A stretch of 64,000 nt of DNA from Takakia lepidozioides (GCA_030704615.1 CM060731.1:68386001-68450000); one strand, 5' to 3'; positions 1-62,600 are shown, counted from the first letter of the stretch. Notes: generated by a model not told the origin, from the letters alone. Translations and numbers: made by a program.

Positions 1-3
1 AGT

Positions 4-7050: not shown

Positions 7051-7145
7051 TCAAGTGTTAAGCCAGGTGTCAAGTTTAGTTTGATACCTGAAACGTCTTA
7101 TCCTAACGCTATGCTCATCTCTCTCGAGTTAAGCTTGCGACCCAT

Positions 7146-32600: not shown

Positions 32601-32736
32601 CCCAACATGCAGCCGAGCGGTACCGTTACTCCAGAGCATGTGGCCTCCTTGTACCTCCGAGCACCCCATATATGTGGTGATGATGTTCAGCCAACCCTTG
32701 GACAAGATCAAGTCTGTGATGAAGACAGTGATGTAG
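29700..32736 (+). pseudogene. CACTA TnpD-like transposase (Transposase_21, DUF4218, DUF4216), with stops and frameshifts
   Basis: HAC..GCVLFRGEY..CPVC; RHPADSKAW; LALDGVNPYG..STWPVLLVNYNLPPW; DAMHCEKN; GMKSHDYHVLMQQ; FPPSFFDVMTHLVVHL; QPFVFPGQVDQVFF. GT-AG intron at 30698-30795. Confidence 0.92.
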
Positions 32737-36906: not shown

Positions 36907-39679
36907 TGTCAAGTTAAATAAGCACAGTGTGAAAACAACTAGAATAAAGCTAGTTATTTGTATTTAACACTTGGATTTAGGTCAAGTGTTAAGTTAGGTG
37001 TCAAGTTTAGTTTGACACCTGAACCGCCCTTATCTTCACGAGAGCGGCAGTCGCGCAGCTCATCTCTCTCGAGTTGAGCCTGCGCGACCGAGCTCCTGCA
37101 TCGTTTAGGACTGAGTGTGCTTATGATGGGAGTATAGGTTGTTGTGGGGTGGAGTCCCCATAGCTTGGGGTGCCCCTGGCTCGACTTCTGTTTTTTAACA
37201 AGTGATAGCGATGGATTTCATGTTGTTTCTGGTGTGAACAGTGTGTCTCTTAGCTTGTTCTATCACTCGAGAGAGATGAGCTCTTACCTGTGAGTGCAAG
37301 GTAGGAGTTGAGGGTTAGCACTTGTATGATTACCTGTGTGAGAGTAGTGCTTAGTTTAAGAAGCTTAAAAAAAAACAAAATATGCAGGTTTCGATCAGCG
37401 TTGGTTCTGGCATGGCCGCCGGGCAGGACGGAGCTACACTGCATGGAAGCAGCCTTCGTTTTGGTCAGTGAGGAGACATCATGGAGTAGCAGCGATTGGC
37501 CGTTGGGAAACTGACCAAGTGCGAGACTTAAAGGGGTACCTGTGATCGAGCAGATGGGTAGAACTTCTGTGCCTGGAGATGGCCGATCTGCTCGCCTTAG
37601 TTCGATGTGCACAGACCAGAAGCGGTCAGGAAAGGCAGCGGAAGAGCAGGTGGAGCTGGTGTAGTGGAGCCAGTTGAAGGAGGAGCTGTAAATCCGCCCC
37701 CTCCAGTAAATGCAGCGCCAACATGTAGAGCACGGCGCAGCGAGCTGGTTGAAGGTGAAGGCCCCGAGAGAGAAAGCCTAGCAGCAAAGTGATGGAGAAC
37801 GGGGAGCCCATTGCTGGCATATCATCAACACTGCAAAACCAGGAGTCTCACAAAGCTTCATGCTACTTGTGATTGTGGCTGGGAAAGCTGCTTTCACCTG
37901 GTCGATTATATGCATAAGCAACCAGCTTCCTGACAAAAAGGGTTGTTGGGGGAATTGTTGATTTCGGGGAGTGCAAGGTGCAAAGTCGTTTTTAAGTGCT
38001 TCAGGTTTGTACAAAGCCAAGTAGCTGTTGCTACCTTGCACCTTGGTTCCACCATTTTGAGGTGGAAACTGGTGGAAAGTCGAATGGTGGTTCACAACCC
38101 AGCTTTCAACTCAGCACACTGCCCGAGTCCAAGTTTGTCACCATATATCTGACACTGCTCCTCCGTCCCGCCAATGGTTCTGATTGTTGAAAGATAAGTT
38201 CTTCCTTTAAGACCAAGTCCTCTCAAGTCCTCCTGACTTGGTGCAGGATTGTGGCGATACAGGTCAAGGGAGCTCCAGCTCTACTTGTCTCATCATTGAA
38301 CACTTCCAACTGATCACTTGCCTCTACTGTCATTTCGGCGTCAAGGGTACTTACTTCTGCACAGGTGCTGGTCCTGGGAGTCTTAGTGCGAGATACCACA
38401 TTCATTTAATTGGTGCAGGAATATGAGCTCTATCAGCTTCTGAACTCCAGACTTTCCTGATTATCCCTTTGTCTGGTGTATGGGATGAACCCCGTCTGAA
38501 AACACCAACGATGAGCAAGGTGACCCGAACTGGGCAACAGAGAACTGGGACAACCCAGGTGCAGTTGGTGGCCTTGACCAGACCTCAAGGCCGTACTCAT
38601 CCAACCGGTTAGTGGAAGATGGGAGGTGTGATGGTATTCATAGTATTCATGCAGCTGCCTTGGTGGGGACAGTGAATGCGAGACTGGCAGCTCAACTGGG
38701 CATTGGGATCGTAATTCAGTAGCAGGCTGATTGGAGTTAAAGAGGTTTGGTCATGCCAGTGTCCGAGCAGCCACTGAATCTTGGGTCAGATTTTTTTGAA
38801 GGTATGTTGCATTGCAGTAGGCAGTGTTCCAGGGATTCTGAAACCCCAAGCGAGCAGCATGTGCAAATCAGTGCACGGGTGAATTGAAGCCAACGCCCTA
38901 CCTTTAGAATTCTATTTGCGATCTGCCAGAGAAAGACAGCCAGCTTTGCAGATGTTTGATTGAGGGCAACACTGCATAGCGAGGCCAGTGATTTGAATGC
39001 CGCTGAAATCTGTCACGGAAATGACCTGATTAGGTTTGGCTGAGCATGTAACCAAGTGTCAGGCAATGGAGGCAACGGCCCTTGCTGGAGGATGCATATC
39101 CAAGATGCAGGGATGGTCTGGATGATGCTGGCATAACTGCATTTCCTCTGGCTGCTCCTACAATCTGGTTTATGTGCCCCTGGCACTATAGTGCTGAGCC
39201 CGATTAGATATTTCCGATCTGGTGCTTTCCGGGTTGCATTGTAAGTGTTCCTGCTTTGTTGGGAATATTGGTGCAAAGGATTAAGGCTCAGCATAGCTAC
39301 GGATCTCGACTGGAGGAGAGCCAGTCACTGGGAACGAGGGAACAAGAAACCAGGGAACGGGGAACCAAGACAAGTATTGAAAATAGAGTTTTCCTTGTAT
39401 TTGTTTTGTCTTATATAAAAAAAGAAAAAAAAAAAAAGGTGTTATGTTTAAAAAGCCTGGTTGGTCATATCTTTGTCAAATGAGCTCCGTTTGACTCAGT
39501 TCTTGAGGGGATAGCTGCAGAAAGGGGATATCTACCTATAGCCTGGTTTTTGGTTTTGGGACTCTGCTAAAAATCTATGGAATTTTTAGAGTGTGAGTGT
39601 GCCATGAAAGATCCACAATTCTGTTTCTAGAACCTGTTCTGGTCTATATGAGAGACAAATCTGTGGATGTTCTTCTTGT

Positions 39680-40439
39680 ATGGCTGGGGGAAATGAGGAC
39701 GTAATTGAAGGGCAAGTCTCGTCTCTTAGCCTGTGCACACAAGGGGACATGATTTATGTTTCCCAAGGAACTCAGACTGATTTGAGTGGAGAACAGTTGG
39801 ATGAGTTGATTGCATACTGGGAGTCAGGCATTAGCAGTAGACAACAAACTGCTGTAGTTGGCGTTGATGGCCTCAATGTTGCTTTGGATAGTCAGAACTC
39901 TGTTGGAGCCAGCAGTTCTGAAGCTGTAGGTGAAATACCAAAGTGGGTGAAAGCTAGGCTTGGAACACAACCAAAGACAGCCCCAGGGACCAAGATGTCC
40001 AGCCACAAGGCCGTGGTGTACTGGAGCAGAGGAGCAGGAGCTGCACAAGTTTGTGCAATCAGACATGGTTGCAGCGGATACGCTCTGCACAAGGCAACCA
40101 CGAGCGGGGGTTCATTAGCAATGACAAGTTTGTTTTGCTTGAAGGAGATGCAGTCATTCGCAATGAGGACACCCGCAACCGTCTCAAAGCTTTCGAGTTG
40201 AGAGACTATCAAACCCCCCTTTGTTTTCTTTCGTGTTCAGTGAGCGGGAGATAGGGGAGTATTGCTTTGTCTCTACCTGGCAGAAAGAGGAGGAGGGTTG
40301 GTTAGAGCGAGCTACTGTAGCTTGGGACAAGGTTAGTGGCAGGTTTCTGGACATAGATATACCTCCTACACCCTTACCATCATGCAGAGCGAGGCACTTT
40401 GAGAGAAGTCTGGCAGTTGATAGCATAGATCAGGATTAG
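39680..40439 (+). pseudogene. Accessory ORF upstream of gag (about 250 aa across frameshifts), function unknown
   Basis: Conserved in the second copy (about 61610-62276, - strand): MAGG.D.IEG..SSLSL, GEIPKWV.ARLGTQPKT.PGTK..SHKAVVYWSR, FSEREI.EYCFVSTWQ.EEEGWLER...WDKVS.RFLDIDIPPTP, DSIDQD*. Confidence 0.6.
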
Positions 40440-40933
40440 ATCTTGCTTGGGGGCTTCTATTCTTCCCCTCCATCTCTGTACTATTTTCATTACCTTGTAC
40501 TCGTAGTTGCCAAAGCCTCTCTTGGTGGAGGCCAGTCAGGGGGGTTTTGGGCTGGGCTATTCTGCAGGATGAGCATTGCAGCTGGATTTTGGTGTGGGGG
40601 TGTTGATGTTTTGATTTCTTGTGTTTGGATCCTCCCCAACACCTGCATGCTTGACTGTGCGCCATGTTGGTTTTGTGTGGGCGCTTGCTTTCATAGGGAT
40701 TAGGCCGGATTTGATCACCGATCAATCCTAGAGTATGCTGTCGGTGATGAGGCTGGAGTGATGACCAGCAAGACCACCAGTGTTTCTTCTATGGTGAGGC
40801 TGGGTTGATGACCAGCCAACCATAGGTTCTTGCGGTGGATGCAGGTGCAGGTGCCCTGAGCCACTGGGATATGACCTTAAACTGCAACAGGTGCCTACCC
40901 GTGTCACTATTAGATTAGTAATAGAGCCTTATA

Positions 40934-42558
40934 GTGTCACGTGGGGGAGGTGCACATTGTGAGTGTCATCACGGAGTTACCCATCTGAGGGGAGTACGGC
41001 TACAGGCAGTAGCAGTGAGAGTGGGTTCACCAGACGAGGTGTTCGTTTCAGACCACCTTCACCTCCACCCTCAACTAGTGGAGAGTCAGACACAGACTCG
41101 GAGGCTTCATCAACAGGTGTGCAGTTTCATTCGCCATTGTTGTGGGACGACATGGAGGAGATGTATGGAGCTACCAAGGGGCCTCGTAGGTACTCTGGAG
41201 CTGTGGGCACATCGAGTTGGATGACTTTATCCAGGAGTTCGACAGCTGGTGTGATTTGTAGCAGATGCGCAATCCACAGCTATTCACCCCATTCATGGCG
41301 TGGAAGGGACTGTTCCAGCATTTGGAAGGCCCGCCTATGGACGATTACCATGAGTTCAGGCGAGGACATGAAGCAGAGATTGAGAAGTGGAGGATGTATT
41401 GGTCACCTGACTACGTCTCCATTACTTGAGGCACGACGCGACCAGTAGCTGCATCAGTACCAATATCTCCCACTGCAGCACTAGTAGTGGAACAAGTAGT
41501 GCCGGTACTTCTGCAGGTGGTACCAGTTCAAAAGGTGCTACTACTCCTCCTGCCACAACTACAACACATGTGCCTAGATTCAACCCGGTGGTGGAGTTCT
41601 TCCAGGAGTTGCGGAGGAACTACCAAGGTGTATGGACAGAGAAGCTGCGAAGTTTGCAAGACTTCCAGCGCAAACCAGTGAGAGCTTGCGAGAGGCCTAC
41701 ACTCGTATGAGGCGCTTCATAAGTGTGACCCAGGGGTTACTGAAGCTCAGGCAATCCAGTTCTGGTATGGAATTTTGGACAAGGAGCTCAGGAGAAGGGT
41801 GCGGGATGCAACCCTGTTACAAGCAGCCCAACCCACATTAACAGATGTGTTTCTGCTGGCTGAGCGGATTGAGCTCAACATGGTGGAGGAGCGAGTTGTT
41901 ACCATTGGGTTTGGCAAGGACATGTCTGCACGAGGCGCAGCTGCCAGCCCACAGGCACAAGGGACTACCCAACAGCGTGGTCAGGGGGGCAAGGTTTCCC
42001 AACCCAAGTTCCATGGAGCTTACAGGGACCTCAGGTGCAGAGGCCCGTGGCATCTTTTGCAGGCCAACAGCAACCAGGGGTGATATGTTGGACATGTGGA
42101 GGACCCCATGTCAAGAGAGATTGCCTAGAGAGTGGCAAAGGCCGGCACAAACACAGCCTGCACAGTTGCAGTGTGGGCATTGTGGCAAGTATGGGCATGG
42201 AGATGCCCAGTGTTATGACTTGCATCCTGAGTTGCGCCCAGGCCAGTTCCAAGGGAACAATGGTGGCCGGGGCGAGGTGGACCAGCCCAGAGAGGACGGT
42301 GGTCGGGCACGAGGTGCAGGCCAAGGGCAAGCTCAACATGGCCAAGGACGCGGAGGTCAGGGTGTTGACCAAGGCATGGCCAACCGGCTTCAGCAGCTAG
42401 AGCAGAAGCTCGCTGCCATGGCTACAGCTCAGGCAGTACCGGCTCCCAGGCGGGATGGTCCACCTCCTGCTCCTGAGGGAGAAGATATGGGAGGCATGGG
42501 ATTCATGTGCGCAGCACTACCACTAGAGCAGGTGGAGTCTGCTGCAGCCGTGACTTGA
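40934..42558 (+). pseudogene. gag: Gag (frameshifted) with two CCHC zinc knuckles
   Basis: PRRYSG..ELDDF.QEFDSWCD; ESLREAYTRMRRFI; CWTCGGPHVKRDC; CGHCGKYGHGDAQC. Confidence 0.85.
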
Positions 42559-43069
42559 GCAGCAGCACGAGTTCCTGAGCCACGAGGCAGAGGTGGAGTT
42601 GGATCCACAACGTGGGGAGGCAAGCCGTCAGGCGAGGCTGCCTCAGTCATTCACCTTGGCGGAGACAGTGTCAACGCCATCCATGGCACTAGTTCTCGCC
42701 CGACTGTTACCGAGGCGGAGGTTTCTATGCCATTGGGGAGAGCTACACGTGCATCACTGACACCTGCTGCCAAGGCTAGTGCAGCCGGTGTGTTGTTGGG
42801 GGCAGCCACCTTTGTGTGTCAAGCCCCACTATTCTTGGCAACCATGATTGCGACGCGGGGGGTAAGACCAGCTGCAGTGTTCAGACTAGCAGCAACACTC
42901 TGTGAGAGTGGGGAGGTCACTTCATCTTTTGCGGAGTTACTGGAAGGTGTAGTGGCAGAGGGATCCTCGGATTTGAGGGTCAAGACTGCCACGGCTGCGC
43001 CATGGCAAGCTGCAGCTGCCAGGTTGACAGAGCTACCAGCTAGGCTAGCCTTTGAGCGTCATGGTGACA

Positions 43070-43460
43070 CCTGGAGTTGTCTTGTTAGACAACCAGGATG
43101 GCATTTTCTCTTTGAGTGGACCGGCAGGCAAGAAGTACCGGCCACTGCGGGTCTTGTTGGACTCGGAGCTCAGCCATTGATGTTGGGCAGAGCTGCTATT
43201 GCAGGTTTGGGCCTCATGGAGGCGGATATGGAGCCTTGTCCTTTCCAGATATAGACATCTCTGGGAGGATCAGAGCAGGCTCGGGGCATGACACGACATC
43301 AGTTGGCATTAGACTGCAGCCGGATCATCCTATCGATGGCTCAGTAATGCGAGCCAAGGCCATTGTGACAGACGCGGTCTCTTACGATGTCCTCGTTGGG
43401 GGGGCAGTGTTATACCCCATGGGCTTCACCCTGGACTTTTGGGAGGAGTCAGCATTCTAC
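43070..43460 (+). pseudogene. Retropepsin-type aspartic protease
   Basis: VLLDSG-AQPLMLG (1-nt frameshift here; intact as PVLLDSGAHPFMLG in the - copy, ORF 58444-59076) and a downstream YDVLVG motif. Confidence 0.8.
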
Positions 43461-43639
43461 AGGCCTGGATCCATTGGGGTACGAGCAAGGATTTGCAGCA
43501 GGTTGCTGATCGACGGGTGCAACAAGCCTGGGTAGAGGCTTTTGTACCGTCAGGAGAGGAGGAGAGTGCGGGTATTGCACCAGGACCACCTCAGTTGTCA
43601 CCATTGGATACCACACCTATTGTGTGGCAGTATCCGGAT

Positions 43640-44600
43640 GAAGGCATTTGCCTTCTGGACTTGTTTGGCGGGATCAGCACCGGATTGGCTGCTATGCTAC
43701 AGGCAGGTGTGCGGGTAAGGCGTTACCTGTATGTGGAGAGGGATGAGACTGCACGACGTGTCTCACTACGCCATGTTGCTCAGTTGGTACAGTAGTACCC
43801 TGCTTTGTTGCCAGTGACCAACAAGCCTTGCCAGCAGACATTTCGTTGCTGGGGGCGCCGGATTTGGAGCAGGTTGGCTCCATTGATCTGGTAGTGGCAG
43901 GTTGGCCCTGCCAAGGGCATTCATCAGCCGGGCATGGCAATGGATTGCAAACTCGAGGACGGGTCTGTTTTGGGAGATGGTGCGGATTTTGCGCCACTTG
44001 CAACTTCATCAAGCTGTATCGCCAACATACATCTTGGAGAATGTGCCACTGATGGGCAATTCTCGGGCCAGGGTGATGGCCAGTGTGCATCAAGTCCGGT
44101 CGTGGCTTGGGTCAGCAGTGATGCTGGATGCAGCTGCAGTGGGATCACGGGCTCATCGTCCACGGCTATGGTGGACTAACTTGATGCCACCTGCACTGCT
44201 CAAGCGTGCATTTGATTGGGGTGCAGCGGCCAACACACCTCATAGTGGACAACATTTTGGACACAGGGAGCAGTCTCAACGTGTGAGACACGATGACCGT
44301 TCGCCTTTGGCAGTGGTCAACAGGGTGGGTCAACCACGAGCAGCATTACCTACACTGCTCAGCTTCCCAGGATCCCATGCTTTTCGGGATGGTGGACCTG
44401 GCCTCCTGTGGGATGCTCAGTTGCAACAGTTAGTGAGAGCCTGGTATGCCAACAGCGGAGAGAGGGCAAAGGGGGTTTTAGTCCATCTGGGAGGGGACCA
44501 CGTTGGTGCCTTCTCTTTCTGAGCATCACGTGTCAGGTGTTGGGGCAGCAATGGATCTCAATTGCTTGACCTTGATTATCAGCTTGGCTATGGCTGAACA
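43640..44600 (+). pseudogene. C5 DNA-cytosine methyltransferase domain within pol (DNMT3-like motif style)
   Basis: Motif I LLDLFGGIST (about 43652-43681), II YVERD, IV DLVVAGWPCQG (Cys codon 43909-43911), VI YILENV (ENV 44037-44045), VIII AHRPRLWWTN (44151-44180), IX EPNADERERAM.F (clearer in the - copy), X RQVLG.AMD. Canonical, non-permuted order. Confidence 0.92.
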
Positions 44601-45079
44601 ACGTAGAGTGCGGAGTGCACTTTCCTTGACGGTCTCTCTGCCTACCAGACGGTACAGGCAGCGAGTGGGGGCGAGCCGGTGAGGACCACGGGGTGTAGAC
44701 ATCCATGGCACACGTGGGAGGTGCTCGAGGTTCAGAGGGAGTTGGCAACCAAGGCAGCTGTGATGGATGAGGTTGGGGATTCTTCTCGGGATGAGGAGGT
44801 TCTAAATGATAGATGATGGGGCAGGCTGAGGCCTTGTCATTGACTGAGCAGGAAGGGAGTACTGCTCAAGAGGTTGGCAGCAATAGCAACCACGGGACGC
44901 GTCCTCTACCTCTAAGCCCACTGGACTTAAGGTTGCAGTTACGGAGGACAATTGGAGCCTGACATTGGACCCATTGTCACCGGAGGAGAGAGACGACGTA
45001 TACGGTGGTTCTGAGGCTTACAAGAATTGCTTTGGCCTTCAGTTTGAAGTACTTGGAGCACTGAAGGGTCCAGAGATCC

Positions 45080-46041
45080 GTATTGATTGGCCATTGACAC
45101 GCCAATCTTTCGGAGACCCTATAGATACAGTGACATGGAGAGGTCTTTGATTCAGATAGGACTCAGATCTCTGGGAGGCAGGTTTGGTGGAGCTCTCTGG
45201 TGGAGAGTATTCTTCATCAGCCACATTGATGCCAGCCAAGAAGGATGTCTATGGCAATTGGACGGAGAGACGTATATGCCATGATTACCGGCCTGTAAAT
45301 CGTTAGACCAAGTCCGATAGGTATGCCATGCCGACACCAGAGGAGATCTTTGATGCCATTGGGCATTCCAAGGTCTTTAGCACGTTGGATTTACGATCCA
45401 GATATCACCAGTTGCCGATCAAAGAGGCGGATAAGCAAAAGACGACATTCTGGGGGATCAATGAGCACGGGAAGGATTGCCTATATACCATGGCGGTTCT
45501 TACCATTTGGCTTAAAACGCTCCCGCTGAGTTTCAAAGAGTCATGGACATGATTCTAGCAGGGGTGGAGTTTGCTCGGTGCTACATAGATGACATCACAT
45601 CATCTTTAGTGCTATGGTGGAGGAGCATGAGAGACACCTTCAGGGGGTATTTGAGCGCTTGAGGACGCACGGATTGAAGTTACATCCGGGCAAGTGCAAG
45701 TTTTTCCACAACCAGATTGAGTATTTGGGTCACATGATATATCCTGGAGGATTGGGGGTACATCAGACTAAGGTAGAGTCCATTGCACAGGTTCCACGCC
45801 CCACGGATGTGAGCCGAGTTCGAGCTTCATCATGGGGTTAGCAAACTATTACAGACGGTTTGTTAAGGATTTAATGCCATTGCAAAGGGTCTAACCAAGC
45901 TGACCAAGGTGGACCAGGAGTGGCAGTGGGAAGATGAGCAAGAACAAGCTTTTCAAGAGCTCAAGGCGAGGTTGACCTCGGCGCCCATCTTGAGACGACC
46001 TATCAGGGGGCGTCTTTTTTCAGCTGCATACAGATTGGAGC
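45080..46041 (+). pseudogene. Gypsy-type reverse transcriptase (frameshifted)
   Basis: PIFRRPYRYS; DYRPVN; MPTPEEIFD..FSTLDLRS.YHQ; LPFGLKNAP; YIDD (about 45582-45593); KLHPGKCKF..IEYLGH. Confidence 0.9.
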
Positions 46042-48021
46042 ATGCTGGGGCTTGGAGCGATGCTCACAGAGGTGGATGATGAGGGAAGAGAGTTCGTAGT
46101 GGCTTATGCTAGCCGCTCGAACAATGCTGCAGAGTCTAAGTATAGCTCATATGAGGGAGAATGCTTAGCTGCAGTGTGGGCCGTGGCACACTTCAGGTGC
46201 TATCTATACGGCAATCTCTTCACCCTTGTCACGGATCACCAACCACTCAAGTGGTTGATGGAGTCAGACAAGCTTACGGGGAAGCTTGCACGATGGGAAA
46301 TCATCCTTCAAGAGTATGACTTTCAGTTGGTGCATCGACCGGGTTTGGTCAATCGCAATGCAGATGGGTTGAGTCACAATCCATGTACGAGCCAGCAGGA
46401 TGACACTGGAGCTCGGTGGCATGGTGAGACGGACGAGGAGATGGTGCCCGGATGGCATGCATCTGCATTTCTGTGTATCTTGGCAGCGGAAGGCCAGGTT
46501 GGACCTGCAACAGGGATGACTGTAGATCAAGTGTCTGAGGACCCTGAGGCCAGCAATGAGCAAGGTGGCGCCAAAGATATACATGAGGATTCAGTTGTGT
46601 TGGACTACCTCCGCACTGGAACCACTGCAGCCACTGTGACTGCCAAGGAGAGGGATCGGATCCTACAACGAGCCAAGAGGTTCAAGTGGGAGGGGACACA
46701 CCTGCTCCGAGTGTGGGAGGATGGTCAAGTGAGGATTGTGCCTCACCCAACACAGCGGGCACGGTTAGTGCGGCATGCCCATGAGGAGTTGGGACATTTT
46801 GGGGTGCGACGCACTCATAGTCTACTCCAGGGGCAGTATTGGTGGCGTGGTATGCACACAGAGGTGCAACAATTTGTGGCTAGGTGCATGGTGTGTGACA
46901 AGGTGCGTGCTTCATTCAACGCCCCTACTCCACAATTGCACCCTCTTCCGATCATGGGATTGGGCTACAGGTGGAGTCTTGACTTCGCAGGGCCATTGCC
47001 ACTGACCATGCATCACAATAAGTACATGTTGGTGATGGTGGAGCACTTCTCCAAGTGGATTGAGTTGGTTCCATTGCCTGATAAGGTTAGTGAGGGAGCT
47101 GAGTATGCATTCTTGGATTGTGTGCTTAGCCGATTCGGTGCTCCAGCTGAGGTACTCACGGACCAAGGGAGAGAGTTCTTGGGGGAGTTTCAGGCTTTGT
47201 GTGACAAGGCCTTGATAGACAACCGCACCACTTCTCGGGATCATCCTGAGGCCGATGGCTTGGCAGAGAGAGTTGTTCAGACAGTAAAGAGGGGTTTGCG
47301 CAAGTATGGCTTGAAAAAGGGACACCTAGGAGATTGGGACCTTCAGTTACCCTGGTTAGCCATGAGCTACAGGTTCAGCAAGCAAGCATCACTTGCCTCC
47401 TTCTCACCATACTTTCTTCTCTTTGGCCGAGAGCCGGATTTGCCTGCATCCATTCGCAGAGAAGCTGCTGCAGTTCCTAACCTTGACGATCCGGACGTGT
47501 GGGCACGTGCATGTGAGCAGCGTGCAGAGTTGTTCAAGAAAGTCATGCCCATGGCTTTCGAAAACCTTGACATCGCACAACACCGTGATACGTTGAGGTA
47601 TGCTACCATACGTGGTGGGGGCTATCGTCCTGGGGTTCGAAGATTCAACCCTGGTGACTATGTTTACCTGCAGCAGACTGCTCCTACGACCTTGGATGTG
47701 ACTGCAGGACGTGTTATTTTGAGGGTTCGAGAGGTCTTGCCCTCAGGCGTCTTGGTCTTGGAGGGTCGGGATGGCATAACTTGGAAGGACCATGTGCGTA
47801 ATTGTGCGCCATGTCACCTTCCGAATGTCGATGGCAGGATAGACCCAAACTTGGCAGTGGTATCTGCAGGTTTGAGGTGCATGTTGTATGGGTCTGCTAG
47901 AGGGGCAGCCACCATGCTGGTGTGTGATCGATGCTCTAGAGGTTGGCATATGGGATGCTTGACTCCACCTCTTGAGATGGTTCCGGATGGGGATTGGTTA
48001 TGTCCACATTGCATTGGATAG
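46042..48021 (+). CDS. pol: Pol C-terminal part: RNase H, integrase (HHCC + DDE) and C-terminal PHD finger; uninterrupted 659-aa frame
   Basis: VVAYASR..YSSYEGECLA; VTDHQPL; NADGLS; HEELGH..CMVC; WSLDFAGP, LTDQGREF, DGLAERVVQTVK; CDRCSRGWHMGCLTPPL..VPDGDWLCPHC. Confidence 0.92.
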   Translation: MLGLGAMLTEVDDEGREFVVAYASRSNNAAESKYSSYEGECLAAVWAVAHFRCYLYGNLFTLVTDHQPLKWLMESDKLTGKLARWEIILQEYDFQLVHRPGLVNRNADGLSHNPCTSQQDDTGARWHGETDEEMVPGWHASAFLCILAAEGQVGPATGMTVDQVSEDPEASNEQGGAKDIHEDSVVLDYLRTGTTAATVTAKERDRILQRAKRFKWEGTHLLRVWEDGQVRIVPHPTQRARLVRHAHEELGHFGVRRTHSLLQGQYWWRGMHTEVQQFVARCMVCDKVRASFNAPTPQLHPLPIMGLGYRWSLDFAGPLPLTMHHNKYMLVMVEHFSKWIELVPLPDKVSEGAEYAFLDCVLSRFGAPAEVLTDQGREFLGEFQALCDKALIDNRTTSRDHPEADGLAERVVQTVKRGLRKYGLKKGHLGDWDLQLPWLAMSYRFSKQASLASFSPYFLLFGREPDLPASIRREAAAVPNLDDPDVWARACEQRAELFKKVMPMAFENLDIAQHRDTLRYATIRGGGYRPGVRRFNPGDYVYLQQTAPTTLDVTAGRVILRVREVLPSGVLVLEGRDGITWKDHVRNCAPCHLPNVDGRIDPNLAVVSAGLRCMLYGSARGAATMLVCDRCSRGWHMGCLTPPLEMVPDGDWLCPHCIG

Positions 48022-48365
48022 TGGGAGTGGATACAACCATGGAAGGCTAACAAGAAACGCAAGGCCCAGCTATTAGGAGACCTTGAACACACGAGGTCCT
48101 GGCTCAAGTTCACAGATTGCAAGACGACGACTAACGATGGGGCTACTCTTGTACCCGGCCTCTTGGTCTATAGAGTTTGAGTGCAATAGGGACAGTGATA
48201 GCGGACTTAGTACGGCTGTGGCTATTACATCTTGTAGCTATCTAGAGGTAGAGGGACCTACCCACCAGCTAGGGGGCGATTGTGGCAGACTACTTTATTG
48301 TGCATATATGTGTGGTGTGGTTTGGACAGCGATGTAGTTGTGTAGTGATACGTATGCGCACGACA

Positions 48366-48878
48366 GCACCTTCTTCAACACATTCCACCATGTTTTTTCC
48401 TCTTATCAGAATCGGCCATGTTGAATTCTGCAAGTTAGCTGGTTGAGTGAACCTTTGATAGTTTGGAGTGACTGACATGATACTGCCAATGTGACAACAG
48501 AAAGTATCCAGAAACAGGTAACAGAGATAAGGAGAAGCTGTGGAATGAATACTTTTCTGACCCCAGTCAATGGTGGGACGATCGAGGCAAGAAGGTGAAT
48601 GCTTGTTGGATTATAGAGAGTAGCAGATGCAATTGAGCATAGGAACTAGTGTGATAAGTAGGGTTGGGGTGTTTGCTAGAACAACTCTAGGCTGTCATTG
48701 TCAGCTGCTAGCAGCAATGCAATGATGTATGCATGGTTTGTGTAGAGGCATGGATAGCTGAAGAAGCAGGGATGGAGTGTGGGTCCAGATATTTCATCCA
48801 AGAGGGCCGGATTTCAAGCATAAGGTAACCTATGATTCCCTGTGGATCAATAGCTACAAGAAACCTGCATGGGTAGAT
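48366..48878 (+). pseudogene. Continuation of the OSB PDF-motif gene fragment interrupted by the retroelement
   Basis: Matches 36002-36255. Reads EKLWNEYFSDPSQWWDDRGKK|gt, then HPRGPDFKHKVTYDSLWINSYKKPAWVD. Confidence 0.8.
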
Positions 48879-48884
48879 ATCTAT

Positions 48885-51730: not shown

Positions 51731-54700
51731 TCTAACCAAGCTGACCAAGGTGGACCAGGAGTGGCAGTGGGAAGATGAGCAAGAACAAGCTTTTCAAGAG
51801 CTCAAGGCGAGGTTGACCTCGGCGCCCATCTTGAGACGACCTATCAGGGGGCGTCTTTTTCAGCTGCATACAGATTGGAGCATGCTGGGGCTTGGAGCGA
51901 TGCTCACACAGGTGGATGATGAGGGAAGAGAGTTCGTAGTGGCTTATGCTAGCCGCTCGAACAATGCTGCAGAGTCTAAGTATAGCTCATATGAGGGAGA
52001 ATGCTTAGCTGCAGTGTGGGCCGTGGCACACTTCAGGTGCTATCTATACGGCAATCTCTTCACCCTTGTCACGGATCACCAACCACTCAAGTGGTTGATG
52101 GAGTCAGACAAGCTTACGGGGAAGCTTGCACGATGGGAAATCATCCTTCAAGAGTATGACTTTCAGTTGGTGCATCGACCGGGTTTGGTCAATCGCAATG
52201 CAGATGGGTTGAGTCACAATCCATGTACGAGCCAGCAGGATGACACTGGAGCTCGGTGGCATGGTGAGACGGACGAGGAGATGGTGCCCGGATGGCATGC
52301 ATCTGCATTTCTGTGTATCTTGGCAGCGGAAGGCCAGGTTGGACCTGCAACAGGGATGACTGTAGATCAAGTGTCTGAGGACCCTGAGGCCAGCAATGAG
52401 CAAGGTGGCGCCAAAGATATACATGAGGATTCAGTTGTGTTGGACTACCTCCGCACTGGAACCACTGCAGCCACTGTGACTGCCAAGGAGAGGGATCGGA
52501 TCCTACAACGAGCCAAGAGGTTCAAGTGGGAGGGGACACACCTGCTCCGAGTGTGGGAGGATGGTCAAGTGAGGATTGTGCCTCACCCAACACAGCGGGC
52601 ACGGTTAGTGCGGCATGCCCATGAGGAGTTGGGACATTTTGGGGTGCGACGCACTCATAGTCTACTCCAGGGGCAGTATTGGTGGCGTGGTATGCACACA
52701 GAGGTGCAACAATTTGTGGCTAGGTGCATGGTGTGTGACAAGGTGCGTGCTTCATTCAACGCCCCTACTCCACAATTGCACCCTCTTCCGATCATGGGAT
52801 TGGGCTACAGGTGGAGTCTTGACTTCGCAGGGCCATTGCCACTGACCATGCATCACAATAAGTACATGTTGGTGATGGTGGAGCACTTCTCCAAGTGGAT
52901 TGAGTTGGTTCCATTGCCTGATAAGGTTAGTGAGGGAGCTGAGTATGCATTCTTGGATTGTGTGCTTAGCCGATTCGGTGCTCCAGCTGAGGTACTCACG
53001 GACCAAGGGAGAGAGTTCTTGGGGGAGTTTCAGGCTTTGTGTGACAAGGCCTTGATAGACAACCGCACCACTTCTCGGGATCATCCTGAGGCCGATGGCT
53101 TGGCAGAGAGAGTTGTTCAGACAGTAAAGAGGGGTTTGCGCAAGTATGGCTTGAAAAAGGGACACCTAGGAGATTGGGACCTTCAGTTACCCTGGTTAGC
53201 CATGAGCTACAGGTTCAGCAAGCAAGCATCACTTGCCTCCTTCTCACCATACTTTCTTCTCTTTGGCCGAGAGCCGGATTTGCCTGCATCCATTCGCAGA
53301 GAAGCTGCTGCAGTTCCTAACCTTGACGATCCGGACGTGTGGGCACGTGCATGTGAGCAGCGTGCAGAGTTGTTCAAGAAAGTCATGCCCATGGCTTTCG
53401 AAAACCTTGACATCGCACAACACCGTGATACGTTGAGGTATGCTACCATACGTGGTGGGGGCTATCGTCCTGGGGTTCGAAGATTCAACCCTGGTGACTA
53501 TGTTTACCTGCAGCAGACTGCTCCTACGACCTTGGATGTGACTGCAGGACGTGTTATTTTGAGGGTTCGAGAGGTCTTGCCCTCAGGCGTCTTGGTCTTG
53601 GAGGGTCGGGATGGCATAACTTGGAAGGACCATGTGCGTAATTGTGCGCCATGTCACCTTCCGAATGTCGATGGCAGGATAGACCCAAACTTGGCAGTGG
53701 TATCTGCAGGTTTGAGGTGCATGTTGTATGGGTCTGCTAGAGGGGCAGCCACCATGCTGGTGTGTGATCGATGCTCTAGAGGTTGGCATATGGGATGCTT
53801 GACTCCACCTCTTGAGATGGTTCCGGATGGGGATTGGTTATGTCCACATTGCATTGGATAGTGGGAGTGGATACAACCATGGAAGGCTAACAAGAAACGC
53901 AAGGCCCAGCTATTAGGAGACCTTGAACACACGAGGTCCTGGCTCAAGTTCACAGATTGCAAGACGACGACTAACGATGGGGCTACTCTTGTACCCGGCC
54001 TCTTGGTCTATAGAGTTTGAGTGCAATAGGGACAGTGATAGCGGACTTAGTACGGCTGTGGCTATTACATCTTGTAGCTATCTAGAGGTAGAGGGACCTA
54101 CCCACCAGCTAGGGGGGCGATTGTGGCAGACTACTTTATTGTGCATATATGTGTGGTGTGGTTTGGACAGCGATGTAGTTGTGTAGTGATACGTATGCGC
54201 ACGACAGCACCTTCTTCAACACATTCCACCATGTTTTTTCCTCTTATCAGAATCGGCCATGTTGAATTCTGCAAGTTAGCTGGTTGAGTGAACCTTTGAT
54301 AGTTTGGAGTGACTGACATGATACTGCCAATGTGACAACAGAAAGTATCCAGAAACAGGTAACAGAGATAAGGAGAAGCTGTGGAATGAATACTTTTCTG
54401 ACCCCAGTCAATGGTGGGACGATCGAGGCAAGAAGGTGAATGCTTGTTGGATTATAGAGAGTAGCAGATGCAATTGAGCATAGGAACTAGTGTGATAAGT
54501 AGGGTTGGGGTGTTTGCTAGAACAACTCTAGGCTGTCATTGTCAGCTGCTAGCAGCAATGCAATGATGTATGCATGGTTTGTGTAGAGGCATGGATAGCT
54601 GAAGAAGCAGGGATGGAGTGTGGGTCCAGATATTTCATCCAAGAGGGCCGGATTTCAAGCATAAGGTAACCTATGATTCCCTGTGGATCAATAGCTACAA

Positions 54701-57071
54701 GAAACCTGCATGGGTAGATATCTATCACTGACCAAAAGGCAGAAAGTAGTTCATGGCTTTTAGCATGCCTGCGGAGACGTAGTGTAGATATAGTATGTCA
54801 CCCTTTATCATGGCTGGATTTTGTTGACTTTGTTCCAACACTTATTGTCTTGGATTCTATTCTGTTTTTTGAATGGTGAATCTTCAAGAGTATTTTGGAT
54901 TTGCAGATTCACTTCGAATGTATGGGAATTGTAGGAGAATTATATGGGAATGTATGAATCACTTACACACCACTCTGTCAGTGGTATATGTAAGACTGTG
55001 ACAGTATGCAAGAGTGGTTGTACTCCTCCAGATGTAGCCCCAATCACTTACATACCACTCTGGTAGTAATAATTCAAAAACATGGTTCCTACTTGGTGGG
55101 ACATACTGGATGACTTCGTCAGTGATTTTAGCACACAACCTAACCACTACATTGATACTGGTAGAACCACTCAGTAAGTGTTTTAGCACACATCAATACT
55201 ATTAGAACCACACATTCAGTGATAATATACATTGTTTATTCTCGAATCATGACTATTAGAGTCATTTAAGTCTCACTCACATAGTTGTTTGTGAAGTCAT
55301 TGCATTTTTTAGCACATCCCTAAAATAGGGCACGTGCTCATTTGCAATATCGCCACGTGTCCAGATAATGGAGCCCATAATCGTCTAATTGGATTCGGCC
55401 ACGTTTCCATATGGATACGGACACGTGTCCGTCCATTGCTAAGCATGATCGACGGAGTTATTGCGTCCACGTTGCATACGGTGGAAGTGGTCTATGTTCT
55501 GAAGTGGCTAGTTTACCACTGTGACACATCATAAGTGGTTAGTTTATCACTGTGACACATAAGCGAACAGCTGGACTCGGAGGCAAGTGATCGTAATCAC
55601 TGTCTTTAACCACTTTGGACACGTCATGTCTTTAACCACTGCTGAGTCAAGATCCACTGGTTCTAGACCACTCTGGGGCCAGAGTGGTTGGGTGTCTTTT
55701 CCCACTCAAAATGAGTGGTTGCCAGAGTGGTTATTCCGCGTTTTTCCTCTAGTGGATCCTCAACCCGAGAAAAATCCCCAACCTCATCCATCACCGCCGC
55801 CTTGGCTGCCAACTCCCTCTGAACTTCGAGCACCTCCCACGTATGCCATGGATGCCTGTACCCCGTGGTCCTCACCTACTCGCCCCCACTCATTGCCGGG
55901 GATTGCTAAACCGTGAGCAGAATTCTACTCACGCTTCTGGATGTGCTCACCTATAACCGCAGACACCTATTCGGCTTAGAGGACCTATTACTGCGGGTAA
56001 TGTCCAGTATAACATGCATACCAATTCATCGTTATGGATGAATGACGGATGAATGATGGATGAATGGACGATGAATGTATGTTGGACGAATGACACATGG
56101 ATGAATGTAGTTTGTGGTTGAATGCAAAATTAAAAAGCATTTTTGAGTAGTGGTTGCCAAATCCCCCGAGCTCCAGAGTGAACCTCTCCCAACTGCAGAG
56201 GGTTGTGGTTGTCCTTTCACCAGGTATCCTAAGTTGAGAGAGATGCTGACACCCAATTGCAAAGAAGGTGGAGAGGCCTTTGGTGCTTTAATATAAATCG
56301 TTTGAAAACAGCCGATTCATTCCGACGAAGAATATCCACTGCTACTGGAGTCAGAGTCCAAAACGAACTGTCTATGAAGACACTAGCCTTGCTCGGCACA
56401 AAATCCTCTCGATCGTAAAGCACAGGAGGGGGAGAAGAGATGAGACTAAATTTGCAAGCTGCAGCCTCCGCATAACATGACATCTGTAACGTCATCTGGT
56501 GTGCTATTTGGGGTGAATGGCATCTACAAACTGTTCGGACCATATAACTTATGATTTGTTGTCATGTCTTTCTTCCATGTGACCAAAAATCCATGCTGGG
56601 TAAACGCCAGGTCTTTTGCTTGCAAAGCAGGGGTTGGGTTCATTTGCAAGTTTTCCAATTTTTATTTTTATTTTTATTTTTCCCCGAATGTGCCAGATTA
56701 AGGTGTCGTCAACGACACCTTAATCTACCTTAATTTGGCTAATCTTCTGGTGTGTTATTTTGGGTGAATGGCATCTACAAATTGCTCGGACCACATAACT
56801 TATGATTCATTGTCATGTCATTCTTCCATGTGACCAGAAATCCATGCTGGGTAAACGCTAGGTCTTTTGCTTGCAAAGCAGGGGTTGGGTTCATTTGCAA
56901 GTTTTCCAATTTTTATTTTTATTTTATTTTTTTCCCGAATGTACCAGATTAAGGTGTCGTCAACGACACCTTAATCTGGCTGGTCTTCTGGTGTGTTATT
57001 TGGGGTGAATGGCATCTACAAATTGCTCGGACCACATAACTTATGATTCATTGTCATGTTCTTCTTCTATG
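51731..57071 (+). repeat. Near-identical direct duplicate of 45890-51230 (probable uncollapsed contig overlap)
   Basis: Offset is 5840-5841 bp. I saw only one substitution and a few homopolymer indels, and both copies abut the gap. Confidence 0.9.
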
Positions 57072-60000
57072 TGACCAGAAATCCATGCTGGGTAAACGGT
57101 CTTTTGCTTGCAAAGCAGGGGTTGGGTTCATTTGCAAGTTTTCCAATATATATATATATATATTATATTATACTATTTTTCCCCGAATGTACCAGATTAA
57201 GGTGTCGTCAACGACACCTTAATCTGGTTGGTCTTTGGGTGTGCTATTTGGGGTGAATGCCATCTACAAATTACTCGGACCATATAACTTATAATTCGTT
57301 GTCATGTCCTTCTTCCATGTGACCAGAAATCCATGCTGGGTAAATGTCTGTACCGTCTCGGTAGTTGGCAATGAGACTGTCAAGGGAAGGGTAGTGACGG
57401 AAGTTGTCCGCAATCTATGCTGCTCAGCCATATCCAGGCTGACAATCCAGGTCAAGCAATTGAGATCCATTGCTCAATGCCCTAACACTTGTCGACGTGA
57501 TGCCTCAGAAAGAGATAGCACCACCGTGGTACCAGTGGAAAAATCCATCGCCCGCTCGCGCTCGTCAGCATTGGGCTCCACTAATTGCTGCAACTGAACA
57601 TCCCACAAGAGACCAGGTCCACCATTCCGAAAAGCATGAGATCATGGAAAGCTGAGTAGTGTAGGCAATGCTGTCGTGGGTGACCCACTTTATTGACCAC
57701 TACCAAAGGTGACCGGTCATCGTGTCTCACAGTTTGAGACTGCCTCCCTATGTCCAAAATGCTATCCACCGTGAGGTGTGCTGGCCGTTGCACCCCATCA
57801 AATGCACGCTTGAGTAGTGTGGATGACATCAAGTTGGTCCAACCATAGCTGTGGCACAGATGCACACCCCGATGCACCCCGAGCTGGCAACGTGCATCTC
57901 CGTAGGCAACCAGTCATGCCTGAATGCCCGGCCAATGTCCAGCCACCGCTCCTATCTTGATCTTGGCAGCTGCTGGTATCCACAAACTACAGACACCGGC
58001 AACAACTTAGGTACTGCTGCACCAGTTGAGCAACATGGCATAGTGAGATGCGTCGTGCAGTCTCATCCCTCTCCACATACAAGTAATGTTGTACTCATAC
58101 ACCTGTTTGTAGCATATCAGCCAAACCAGTGCTGATCTCGCTAAACAAGTCCAGAAGGCAGATGCCTTCATCCGGGTACTGCCACACAATAGGTGTGGTG
58201 TCCAATGGTGACAACTGAGGTGGTCCTGGTGCAATCACCGCACTATTCTCCTCTCCTGACAGTACAAAGGCCTCTACCCAGGCTTGTTGCACCTGTCTAT
58301 CAACAACATGCTGCAAATCCTTATTTGTGCCCCACAATGGAGTATGAGCAACCATGGCAGGCAATTCCGCCGTACCATGCATATCATCCTGTTCTGCTGA
58401 AGGTGACACATCCTCTGCATGAGCATTGCCTTTTAGCAACTCTCTAGGCCAAGTCACTGCACCTGTGAAGGCTGCTAGTGTCGGCATCGTGCCCCGATGG
58501 GCAGCAGCAACACCCCCAATGAATGTCACAGGAAGTTGCACCCACCGGCCATCCCCTGACTGCCATCCAGGCCTGTAAGAGGCCGACTCTTCCTAAAAAT
58601 CCAGGGTGAAGCCCATGGGGTACAACACTGCCCCACCAATGAGGACATCGTAAGAGACCACGTGTGTCACAATGGCCTTGGCTCGCATCACTGAGCCATC
58701 TAATGGCCAACTCACGCCGTGTCATGCCCCGAGCCTGCTCTGATCTTCCCAGAGATGTATGTATCTGGAAAGAACATGGCTCTATATCTGCCTCTGTGAG
58801 CCCCAAACCTGCGATAGTAGCTCTGCCCAACATAAATGGATGAGCTCCCGAGTCCAGCAATACTGGTAGTGGCCGAAATCTCTTGTCCGTCGGCCCACTC
58901 AAACAGAAAACACCATCCTGGTTGTCCAACAAAACAACTCCAGGTGTCACCATGACGCACTCAATGGCTGGCCTAGCTGACAGCTCCATCAACCTAGCAG
59001 TTGCAGCTTGCCATAGCACAGCCATGACAGTCTTGACCCTCAAATCCGAGGATCTCTCCGATACAGCACCTTCCACTAACTCCGTAGAAAATGAAGTGAT
59101 CTCCCACTCTCATAGAGTGTCGCCGCTAGTCTAAACACTGCAGCTGGTCGTACCCCCGGCGTTGCAATCATGGTCGCCGAGAACAATGGGGCCTGACATA
59201 CAGATGTGGCCGCTCCCAGCAGCACACTGGCTACACTAGCCTTGGCAGCAGGTATTGGTGCTACCCATGTGGCTCTCCCCAAGGGCACAATAACCTCCAC
59301 CTCGGTATTCGTCGGGTAAGAACTAGGTGCCATGGATGGCGTCGACACTGTCTCCACCAATGTGAAGGATTGAGGCAGCCTAGCCAGACGGCTTGCATCC
59401 CCATGCTGTGGATCTAACTCCACCTCTGCACCTCGTGGCTCATGAACTCATACTGCTCCTCGAGTCATAGCTGAAGCAGAATCCACTTGTACAAGTGGTC
59501 ATCCGAGTGTTGCCCCGCACATAAATCCCATGCCTCCCATGTCTACCATGTCTCCACCGTCAGGATGACGCTGCTAAGGAGGAACAGGAGGTGGACCCTC
59601 AGGTCTTGGAGCCGATACCACCTGAGTTGTGGCTATGGCAGCAAGTCTTTGCTCTAGCTGTTGAAGCCGGTTGGCCATGCCTTGGTCAACGCCCTGACCT
59701 CCACGTCCTTGGCCATGTTGTGGTTGCCCTCGTCCTGCACCTCGTGCCTGACCACCTCGTCCTCTCTGAGGTGTTCCATTTTGCCCTCGGCCACCATTGT
59801 TCCCTTGGAACTTGCCTCACCACAACTCAGGGTGCAAGTCATAACACTGTGCCTCTCCATGCCCATACTCGCCACAATGCAATTGTGCAGGTTGTGCTTG
59901 TGCCGGTTCTTTGCCGCTCTCTGGGCAATCATTCTTGACATGGGGTCCTCCACATGTCCAACACACCACCTCTGGTTGTTGTTGGCCTGCAAAAGAAGCT

Positions 60001-62600
60001 ACTGGCCTCTGTACCTGAGGTCCCCTGTAAGCTCCATGGAGTTTGGGTTGGACAACCTTGCCTCCCTGACCACGCTACGGGATGGTGTGTTGCGCTTGTT
60101 GATTGGCAGACATACCCCATGGCATGTCCTTGCCAAACCCAATGGTCACTACACGCTCTTCCACCATGTTGAGCTCAATCCGCTTAGCCAGCAAAAACAG
60201 ATCTGCTAAGGTGGGTTGGGCCGCTTATAACAGGGTTGCATCCCGCACCCTTCTTCTGAGCTCCTTGTCCAAAATTCTATACCAGAATTGGACTGCCTGA
60301 GCTTCAGTGACCCCTTGGGTCACACTTATGAAGCGCCTCATACGAGTGTAGGCCTCTCGCAAGCTCTCACTGGACTTGCGCTGGAAGTCTTGCAAACTTC
60401 GCAGCTTCTTTGTCCGTACCCCTTGGTAGTTCCTCCGCAACTCCTGGAAGAACTCCATCACCGGGTTGAATCTAGGCACATGTGTTGTAGTCGTGGCAAC
60501 AGGAGTGGTAGTACCTTTAGAACTAGTTCCACCTGCAGAAGTACCGGCAACACTTGTTCCACTACTAGTGCTTGTCGTTGGAGATGTTGGTGCTGATGCA
60601 GCTACTGGTAATGGAGACGTAGTCAGGTGACCAATACATCCTCCACTCCTCAATCTCTGCTTCATGTCCTCGTCTGAACTCATGATAATCGTCCATAGGC
60701 GGGCCGTCCAAATGCTAGAATAGTCCCTTCCATGCCATGAATGGGGTGAACAACTGTGGATTGCGCATCTGCTGCAAATCATACCAGCTGTCGAACTCTT
60801 GCATAAAGTCATCCAGCTCAATTGTGCCCACAGTTCCAGAGTACCTACGAGGCCCCTTGGTAGCTCCATACATCTCCTCCATGTCGTCCCACAACAATTT
60901 CAAATGAAACTGCACACCTGTTGATAAAGCCTCCGAGTCTGTGCTAGACTCTACACCAGATGAAGGTGGGGATGAAGGTGGTATGAACCGAACCCCTCGC
61001 CTCGTGAACCCATTGACAGTACTGGTGCTAGTGTTGGCTTGTCTTTCTGAACCCTCTGGCAACTCTGTGATGCCCGTTGTTATCCAAACCTGTCCATGTG
61101 ACACTATAAGGCTCTATAACTAGCTCTAACAGTGACACGGGTGGGCACCTGTTGCGGCTTAAAATGTCATGTCCCAATGGCTAAGGGCACCTACACCTGC
61201 ATCTACCGCAAGAACTCCTATGGTTGGCTGGTCATCAACCCTGCCTCACCATAGAAGAAACACCGGTGGTCTTGCTGGTCATTACTCCAGCCTCACCATC
61301 GACAACATACTCTAGGATTGACCGGTGATCAAATCCGGCCTAATCCCTATGAAAGCAAGTGCCCACACAAAACCAACATGGCGCACAGTCCAGCATGCAG
61401 GCGTGGGGGGGATCCAAACACAAGAAATCAAAACATCAACACCTCCACACCAAAATCCCTCCGAAGTGCTGCTCCTGCAGAATACCCCAGCCCAAAAACC
61501 CCGGACTGATCACTGGCCTTCACCAATAGAGGCTTTGGCAACTACAACTACAAGTAAAGAAAATAGTAAAGAGAGGGAGGGGAAGAATAGAGGTCCGACC
61601 ACTCAAGATCTAATCCTGATCTATGCTATCTACATGATGGTAAGGTGTGGGAGGTATATCTATGTCCAGAAACCTGTCACTAACCTTATCCCAAGCTTCA
61701 GTAGTTCGCTCTAGCCAGCCTTCCTCCTCTCTCTGCCAGGTAGAGACAAAGCAATACTCCCATATCTCCCGCTCACTGAATACTAAAGAAAATAAAGGTA
61801 GGGTCTGACGGTCTCTCAACTCAAAAGCTTTAAGACGGTTGCGGGTGTCATCATTTTGAATGACTACATCTCCTTCAAGCAGAACAAACTGTTCGTTGCT
61901 AATGAACCCCCGCTCGTGGTTGCCTCATGCAGAGCGTGTCCGACTGTAACCACGTCTGATTGCAAAAACTTGTAGCTCCTGCTCTGCTCCAGTACACCAC
62001 GGCCTTGTGGCTGAACACCTTGGTCCCCGGGACTGTCTTTGGCTGTGTTCCAAGCCTAGCTTCCACCCACTTTGGTATTTCACCTACAACTGTAGAATTG
62101 CTCTCTCCCACAGCACTCTACCCGTTGCCTGACTCCCAGTATACCACAAGGTCATCAAAATGGCTTCCACTTAGCTCAGTCTGTGTGCCTTGGGAAATAT
62201 AATTTTTTTCCCCAACTGTTTGAAGACTCAACGAGGAAATGAGCCCTTCAATGGCATCATCATCCCCTCCAGCCATACACTAATCCAAAAGAGCGCCAGG
62301 TGTGTTACCAACACAAAACTCAATGATCATCCATTCAATTGAAGTAGTTTATTCAATAGGCCTCAAATAGATATGGGGAGGGTCTAATTTACATTAGAAA
62401 AAATCTATATATTTTGGCCAGGTCCAAAAACTTAAACCCCTTTCTGTAGGTTCCTGTGCAAGTTTGAGGTCAAACAGGCTCTGTATGCCAAAGATATGGC
62501 CAAACAGGCTATGTAAACATAATATTTGACCTTAAATGGTAACAAATACAAGGAAAAAAAAAATTCAATTAATTTCCTTTGGTTCCCCGTTCCCACGTTT
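55755..62600 (-). mobile_element. Second, more decayed copy of the DNMT-Gypsy element (5' region, accessory ORF, gag, protease, partial DNMT); probably continues to the window end
   Basis: Reverse-complement homology to about 39350-44795. Includes GICLLDLFSEISTGLADMLQTG, PVLLDSGAHP, gag and the accessory ORF; truncated before RT at a CACTA end. Confidence 0.9.
55898..57344. mobile_element. Insertion in the - strand Gypsy copy containing about 245-bp tandem repeats with internal palindromes
   Basis: Splits sequence that is contiguous in the + copy (44650-44670). Starts GGGGATTG, has GGATGAA repeats, and units start at 56498, 56749, 56990 and 57238. Confidence 0.7.

Follow-up and report, generated by a model that had tools for sequence, protein, structure and literature searches.

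A Ty3/Gypsy retroelement of Takakia lepidozioides with a DNMT3-like methyltransferase, and a conserved in-frame stop between methyltransferase and reverse transcriptase in related land-plant elements

We analysed a 64,000-nt stretch of the Takakia lepidozioides genome (GCA_030704615.1 CM060731.1:68386001-68450000), here called the window, which holds a Ty3/Gypsy retroelement bearing its own C5 cytosine DNA methyltransferase (DNMT). Copy 1 of this element is broken, with domains in the order gag, protease (PR), DNMT, reverse transcriptase (RT), RNase H (RH), integrase (INT) and PHD finger (Table 1). Its succession of PR, RT, RH and INT with a DDE (rve) integrase is that of Ty3/Gypsy, and the top PDB match of the open frame running from RH to the PHD finger is Ty3 Gag-Pol (E 1.2e-36). 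The original prediction, made from the sequence alone, had set the element at 40934-48021; that interval is the Gypsy coding region, with many stops and small indels, and the element itself is longer (Table 1).

The DNMT motifs of copy 1 lie between the protease LLDS (43154) and the RT YIDD (45582): I (DLFGGI, 43658), II (YVERD, 43730), IV (GWPCQG, 43900), VI (ENVP, 44037), VIII (HRPRLWW, 44154) and X (AMDLN, 44548). The canonical motif order claimed in the original prediction therefore stands, including its remark that this is not the circularly permuted order of plant DRM, but motif IX is garbled, and the domain is spread over three frames with a stop past motif II and several small indels. 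Pfam gave a divided answer as well: on the broken pieces PF00145 reached at best 20.8 bits against a cut-off of 22 (E 2.9e-4), while RH, INT and PHD matched and intact relatives exceeded the PF00145 cut-off (P0002, P0003, P0006 and P0007, for example, at 35-36 bits). Searched with a profile built from 44 relatives, the window gave independent E-values of 2.9e-54, 1.9e-21 and 6.8e-14. Of 21 PR-DNMT-type proteins checked, 19 have the catalytic Cys of motif IV and 19 have ENV or ENA.

In PDB the family matches DNMT3A/B/C best, with DRM second and bacterial enzymes third. DNMT3A was the top match by phmmer and by profile (E 6e-12 and 1e-26), ahead of DRM (1e-8 and 7e-18), with M.HhaI weaker than both (4e-3 and 2e-9). 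An AlphaFold model of relative P0001, with a predicted local distance difference test score (pLDDT) of 91.8, has DNMT3A as its top Foldseek match (E 4.5e-19, template modelling score 0.65/0.82). The domain is DNMT3-like as judged by similarity ranks of its sequence and by its predicted fold.

Protein searches with the DNMT piece returned 29 matches, the named ones from Marchantia polymorpha (8 entries, 50-60% identity), Calypogeia fissa (2), Sphagnum fallax (1) and Closterium (3); no Klebsormidium-named sequence was among the protein relatives retrieved. Among 50%-cluster representatives there were 269 matches at E<=1e-30. In the 191 proteins fetched, DNMT stands after RH in 77, directly before INT in 15 and before RT or RH in 13, with 19 showing PR-DNMT only and 67 DNMT only. 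Gypsy polyproteins with DNMT between RH and INT and a C-terminal PHD include P0025, P0026 and P0177-P0190, among others; P0184 additionally has NUDIX and G-patch domains. We built trees of DNMT (79 rows) and INT (38 rows) by quick IQ-TREE runs, unrooted, with Shimodaira-Hasegawa-like approximate likelihood ratio (SH-aLRT) support only and with half of the RH-DNMT-INT rows left out. In both, a branch sets the PR-DNMT-RT type apart (SH-aLRT 96 and 94), and in the DNMT tree the named land-plant DNMTs form one subclade (99) and Closterium another. This sequence pattern fits one old DNMT-bearing Gypsy lineage whose DNMT domain changed place; the direction of the move cannot be read because the trees lack an outgroup.

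According to the original prediction the enzyme was part of pol together with RT. That placement has to be given up, because in land-plant families a conserved in-frame stop ends the first open reading frame (ORF1; gag-PR-DNMT) before RT. We surveyed the stop in 80 metagenome loci, 10 of them under the 78% identity filter, the main family being Sphagnum-like (moss-type hereafter); deduplication at 97.5% left the same-site pair L062/L064 in place, so the resulting 56 'distinct' loci are an upper count. Moss-type loci have a single stop at a fixed place, 97 codons past motif X, and RT goes on in the same frame. At this position 54 aligned loci read TAG (40), TAA (13) or GAG (1), with CAA-CCC next to it in 51. 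After deduplication the stop was present in 45 of the 46 moss-type loci covered there, whereas no other stop position exceeded 13 of 53, and a CARYY context followed only 4 of 314 other stops. TAG-CAA-CCA in the window opens the frame running into the RT leader, and in the run copies it lies, by our calculation, in the DNMT frame. L056 also reads TAG-CAA-CCA, and L066 and L076, a fourth family, read TAA-CAA-TCA. ORF1 proteins of Marchantia (P0003, P0006, P0008) and Calypogeia (P0007), together with P0014, end 91-97 residues past motif X, a range that takes in the moss-type frame end at 97 aa. In three families the spacer between stop and RT leader is 16, 22 or 27 codons long and thus preserves the frame; apart from this, the linkers on either side of the stop vary by whole codons from family to family and align poorly.

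UAG_CAR_YYA is the type I (tobamovirus) readthrough motif, which works with UAA too (PMC3542737). An in-frame UAG followed by CAR-YYA is found in the window family and in L056, and L066 and L076 have the same context with TAA. A single in-frame stop before the polymerase, with CAA-YYN, is shared with type I tobamoviruses (PMC3542737), Tj1, in which the in-frame stop is required, and type C retroviruses (PMC4600332). Unlike in those systems, the stop here follows PR and DNMT rather than Gag, so that an enzyme joins the abundant product, and readthrough is predicted. Occasional readthrough of the conserved stop in the land-plant families is likely on this sequence evidence. The conserved stop and the position of DNMT outside the RT frame in land-plant families are new here. 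A stem-loop 3' of the stop was considered and rejected: the z of -3.25 found in the window was not matched in five relatives (-0.5 to -1.8), flanking controls reached -2.1, and the alignment fold had 6 pairs at -0.95 kcal/mol. In run X7, which is possibly RNA, a 2.2-kb contig spans the junction unspliced; it may be DNA and was not used as evidence.

Table 1. Coordinates of the retroelement copies and their parts in the window
Feature	Coordinates	Strand	Remarks
Whole element, copy 1	36907..48365	+	11.46 kb; TGTCA...CGACA termini; layout A-coding-polypurine tract (PPT)-B; dead
Terminal repeat A, start	36907..37084	+	Relic matches at 6073-6146 and 7051-7139
Low-copy insert in 5' region	37250..39340		Possibly a decayed LINE (long interspersed nuclear element) piece on the - strand
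gag, two CCHC-like knuckles, broken	41152..42560	+	tblastn to Marchantia P0005/P0006
Aspartic protease, broken	43079..43470	+	LLDS at 43154; Asp_protease_2 in relatives P0021, P0176
DNMT3-like C5 cytosine methyltransferase	43634..44620	+	Motifs I-X in canonical order; stop and indels
Conserved in-frame stop between ORF1 (gag-PR-DNMT) and RT frame	44884..44892	+	Readthrough-type context TAG-CAA-CCA
Reverse transcriptase, broken	45100..45830	+	YIDD 45582-45593; RVT_1 pieces E 3e-8, 1e-4
Open frame: RNase H, integrase (H2C2 and rve core), C-terminal PHD finger	45994..48021	+	Pfam
Purine tract, then terminal repeat B	48265..48365	+	Ends ...GCACGACA; aligns with PPT-B end of moss-type locus L064
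Copy 2: 5' region, gag, PR, DNMT without motifs IV-VI	57345..62600	-	84% identical; truncated before RT
Apparent third copy	51731..57071	+	99.9% duplicate of 45890-51230 across a 500-N gap

Between the two window copies the ratio of nonsynonymous to synonymous substitution rates (dN/dS) is 0.24 for DNMT, 0.19 for gag and 0.25 for PR, and between families DNMT values are 0.09-0.18. Among moss-type loci, non-deamination variants in DNMT numbered 19 nonsynonymous to 20 synonymous when shared and 211 to 64 when private (p = 0.0007); C>T and G>A changes, whose recurrence confounds such a comparison, were left out of this test. Shared variants in RT were likewise enriched for synonymous changes, and PR gave no purifying signal in the moss-type shared-variant test. 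From these substitution patterns, DNMT is under purifying selection. With the land-plant relatives and the same position of the domain in them, this upholds the earlier claim that DNMT is a family trait.

A second copy with DNMT after the protease had also been reported. Copy 2 does show this placement, though its motifs IV-VI are gone, its motif I reads DLFSEI, and it breaks off at 57345 before any RT. An array of ~250-bp tandem repeats (56491-57344, also 50650-51230) truncates it just past DNMT. The apparent third copy is probably an assembly overlap and not a third insertion: the duplicate stretches differ at homopolymers, which suggests overlap plus some sequencing indels, and one such difference opens the RH frame. 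Both window copies are dead; many of the breaks in copy 1 are absent from run copies. Contigs of runs X1, X3 and X5 cover ~39400-48400 at very high summed depth, which is not equivalent to copy number, and the DNMT region is as deep as RT and INT, which argues for DNMT as a standing component of an abundant family.

No 5'/3' direct repeat and no standard pair of long terminal repeats (LTRs) was found in copy 1; in place of two identical LTRs the family has split repeats, A-coding-B(-A-B). Moss-type loci L019, L060, L062 and L064, with both ends, have the layout A-coding-purine tract-B-A-B, the 3' B-A-B was seen in L017, L029 and L059, and run X5 contains a B-to-A junction. A short form, A-coding-B, occurs in L016, L042, L078 and copy 1, and likely arose by recombination between the two B repeats. 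Moss-type termini are TG...CA, a 2-nt spacer is present at 8/8 B-A junctions, and of the eight moss-type loci in which both ends are present, six, at 5 distinct sites, have a 4-bp target duplication. Termini, purine tract and target-site duplication agree with Ty3/Gypsy, with a duplication of 2 bp in the window. There, copy 1 splits a repeat that has an empty-site paralog at 35952-36033, and is flanked by the 2-bp GC duplication at 36905-36906 and 48366-48367, a single case to set against the 4 bp of moss-type copies. GC is also the commonest B-A spacer (junctions of L008, L029 and L064) and forms a palindrome with the repeat ends. The 5' start of copy 1 resembles sequence that follows B in other family copies (loose end 48367). 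A relic at 6073-7818, with repeat A pieces at 6073-6146 and 7051-7139 and a repeat B end at 7791-7818, is probably an internally deleted non-autonomous derivative.

The nearest published counterpart is KnitGypsy-Dnmt3 of Klebsormidium nitens, a Gypsy element with a Dnmt3-like DNMT (de Mendoza et al. 2018, PMC5890265). The two share the Gypsy domain set, an unrearranged, intronless Dnmt3-like DNMT under purifying selection, and a DIRS-like repeat layout, A-coding-B-A-B, which here is found in moss-type relatives. They differ in host, a land plant here, and in that the DNMT of KnitGypsy-Dnmt3 shares an ORF with RT and RH, a feature found here only in P0176 and P0042, while the DNMT described here ends ORF1 at the stop. 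The C-terminal PHD is not mentioned for KnitGypsy-Dnmt3 in the accessible text of PMC5890265. Three features agree and the shared ORF does not, so the window element is a close variant of KnitGypsy-Dnmt3 rather than a member, by comparison of described features, and it is not the separate new system that had been supposed. Other retroelement-borne C5 DNMTs stand further off: SymbioDIRS-Dnmt3 and SymbioLINE-Dnmt (PMC5890265) have DIRS and LINE backbones, EpiLTRs (bioRxiv 10.64898/2026.05.21.726589) are chromoviruses with DAM and DNMT4-like domains, and their hosts are non-plant or chlorophyte. Ogre/Tat and other REXdb plant Gypsy elements include two-ORF forms with GAG-PROT first, and TatI/II have an extra domain (aRH) in a comparable place between PROT and RT, but Ogre has an intron of ~274 bp and normal LTR pairs (PMC6317226). 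Host plant DNMT3 and DRM have the same DNMT3-type catalytic domain; DRM is circularly permuted, and unlike either, the present domain sits inside a retroelement with no introns seen.

We found no land-plant description of a DNMT-bearing Gypsy in the literature searched, in line with the original prediction, although subscription papers or supplements may hold one. The accessible texts of PMC6453930, PMC11982613, PMC12885004, PMC9985172 and 10.1101/363937 contain no land-plant report, and the main text of the REXdb paper (PMC6317226) does not mention a methyltransferase, PHD or Marchantia. Gypsy-DNMT3 in 'streptophytes' is cited only as previously described in what is accessible of PMC12344493 (citing the 2018 study) and bioRxiv 10.64898/2026.05.21.726589.

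These features suggest how the enzyme might be used. ORF1 encodes a Gag-protease-DNMT3-like protein and ends at the conserved UAG-CAA-YCN stop. Translation of a single RNA would end mostly at Gag-PR-DNMT, and leaky termination would add a small amount of full polyprotein with RT, RNase H, integrase and PHD, leaving RT and INT at a few percent and DNMT at the level of Gag. The protease would free DNMT inside the particle, where double-stranded cDNA would be the nearest substrate. Catalytic activity of the DNMT we regard as likely, packaging with release by PR as fairly likely, and cDNA as the substrate as only slightly favoured. The methylated context would probably be CG, by analogy with DNMT3 and with SymbioDIRS-Dnmt3, which methylates CG de novo in yeast (PMC5890265). 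The PHD beside the integrase most resembles those of KMT2C/D, CHD4, KDM5, PHF21A and UHRF. Many such PHDs read unmethylated H3K4, and a PHD of this kind would steer insertion away from promoters; whether it steers integration by reading histone H3 tails we consider an even bet. The likely benefit would be that a new copy resembles methylated host DNA from the moment it arrives. We give about even chances to the whole chain, in which a Gag-level DNMT, obtained through a leaky stop and packaged, methylates new cDNA before integration.

Several observations count against this chain. The moss-type TAG/TAA-CAA-CCC has five of the six matches to CARYYA, the last base being off. In the divergent family of L066 and L076 the full motif is present in only 2 of 6 decayed copies, L077 has no stop, and L065, L067 and L071 keep the stop with the next codon changed; no stop motif was seen in L073, L074 and L080. 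The stop is not universal, P0176 and P0042 having the same domain order in a single open frame, and the linkers beside the stop gave no purifying signal in the moss-type shared-variant test. Dead copies are in the majority, and dN/dS between young pairs is 0.6-0.9, which is expected of such copies. CpG observed/expected is 0.48 in the element and 0.57 in the flanks, only slightly lower and thus no clear footprint of self-methylation. KnitGypsy-Dnmt3 gave no methylation in yeast, in an assay its authors call inconclusive (PMC5890265).

The last of these results would also fit a domain retained for some task other than catalysis, for instance to bind or shield cDNA or to scaffold the particle, and Gag-level amounts suit a stoichiometric binder; we think this quite improbable, since even highly diverged members retain the SAM (S-adenosylmethionine)-binding motif I, the catalytic Cys, ENV and HRxR. 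An active enzyme could instead work in trans on chromosomal DNA, at resident copies, competing elements or the insertion site. The stop uncouples DNMT from RT and would produce an excess far above one cDNA per particle, in several Marchantia gene models ORF1 is still long and open and its motifs are intact, and accidental host methylation has been raised before (PMC5890265). The 77 of 191 proteins with DNMT after RH inside pol, on the other hand, fit a role in the replication or integration complex, and action in trans strikes us as improbable. That the domain is a functionless one-off capture of a host DNMT3 fragment, as the broken window copies and the lost catalytic block of copy 2 might suggest, is already largely refuted and deserves hardly any credence: DNMT is under purifying selection, elements of liverworts, mosses and algae have it at one and the same place, DNMT and INT trees split congruently, and its depth equals that of RT and INT in runs X1, X3 and X5.

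RT might also be reached without readthrough, by Ogre-like splicing over the stop or from a separate RT message, which would leave the role of DNMT unchanged. Gene models P0005 and P0023, in which the stop region is skipped and DNMT runs on into RT, may point this way; a pyrimidine run and AG lie ~30 nt past the stop, moss-type loci have an ATG two codons past it, and Ogre splices between GAG-PROT and RT (PMC6317226). Yet the only stop is in frame with what precedes and what follows it, and the letters conserved directly past it are CAA-YC. The AG close by takes a different codon phase in each of three families, and neither the window nor L056 has the ATG. Splicing or a second message is accordingly a minority option in our estimate, and translation through a leaky stop remains our preferred route to RT.

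The role of retrotransposon-borne DNMTs has been a standing question since 2018, the reported hosts being algae with few genetic tools. Long open ORF1s with intact motifs are annotated as hypothetical in Marchantia polymorpha (Mp_4g09160 and Mp_8g17980, for example), and methylation mutants of Marchantia exist (10.1101/363937), so that the question becomes directly testable; if the wider picture below is true, Marchantia would be a genetic system for what transposon-borne DNMTs do. The conserved stop predicts enzyme at Gag level and RT at a few percent, which tells against the published view that the DNMT works solely within the RT polyprotein. DNMT3 may, moreover, be overcounted in bryophyte annotations on account of such copies. 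A wider picture is tentative and, in our judgement, rather doubtful: seed-free land plants including Marchantia would harbour an ancient, sometimes very abundant Gypsy with a capsid-level DNMT3-like enzyme, a leaky stop and a split-repeat intermediate, whose copies arrive premethylated and whose surplus enzyme writes methylation de novo on host chromatin.

Some parts of the copies lie outside this argument. The 5' insert of copy 1 is not common to copy 2, and run X1 contig depth over 39000-39320 is ~100-fold under element depth. An additional gene in this 5' region was considered and dropped, its sole sign being a weak zf-RVT match in the insert, below the Pfam cut-off (E 0.004). Upstream of gag, both copies have a high-copy protein-like stretch (39650-40450, +; 61610-62280, -) that found no match in Pfam and is possibly an extra ORF of the family. 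The Pfam match of copy 2 to Retrotrans_gag is weak.

Tandem decayed repeats at 35384-36906 and 48366-48878, which we take to be PPR-like, are the insertion target of copy 1. Elsewhere in the window, two paralogous long open frames (10881-11936 and 13300-14454, -) are 80% identical, with a YLDLGAN...KMDIEG pattern, and presumably resemble FkbM-type methyltransferases. We assume 30042-32736 (+) to resemble a CACTA transposase, 22159-22581 Copia gag-pol, and 24337-24735 (-) another Gypsy RT/RH; the last of these fragments has a tblastn match. Positions 1-726 (+) hold the 3' part of a DUR3 urea-proton symporter gene. In an unrooted tree of 28 rows, which lacks liverworts, hornworts, lycophytes, ferns and gymnosperms, this gene groups neither with the angiosperms nor with Sphagnum and Ceratodon; its best match, at 74%, is in Sphagnum compactum.

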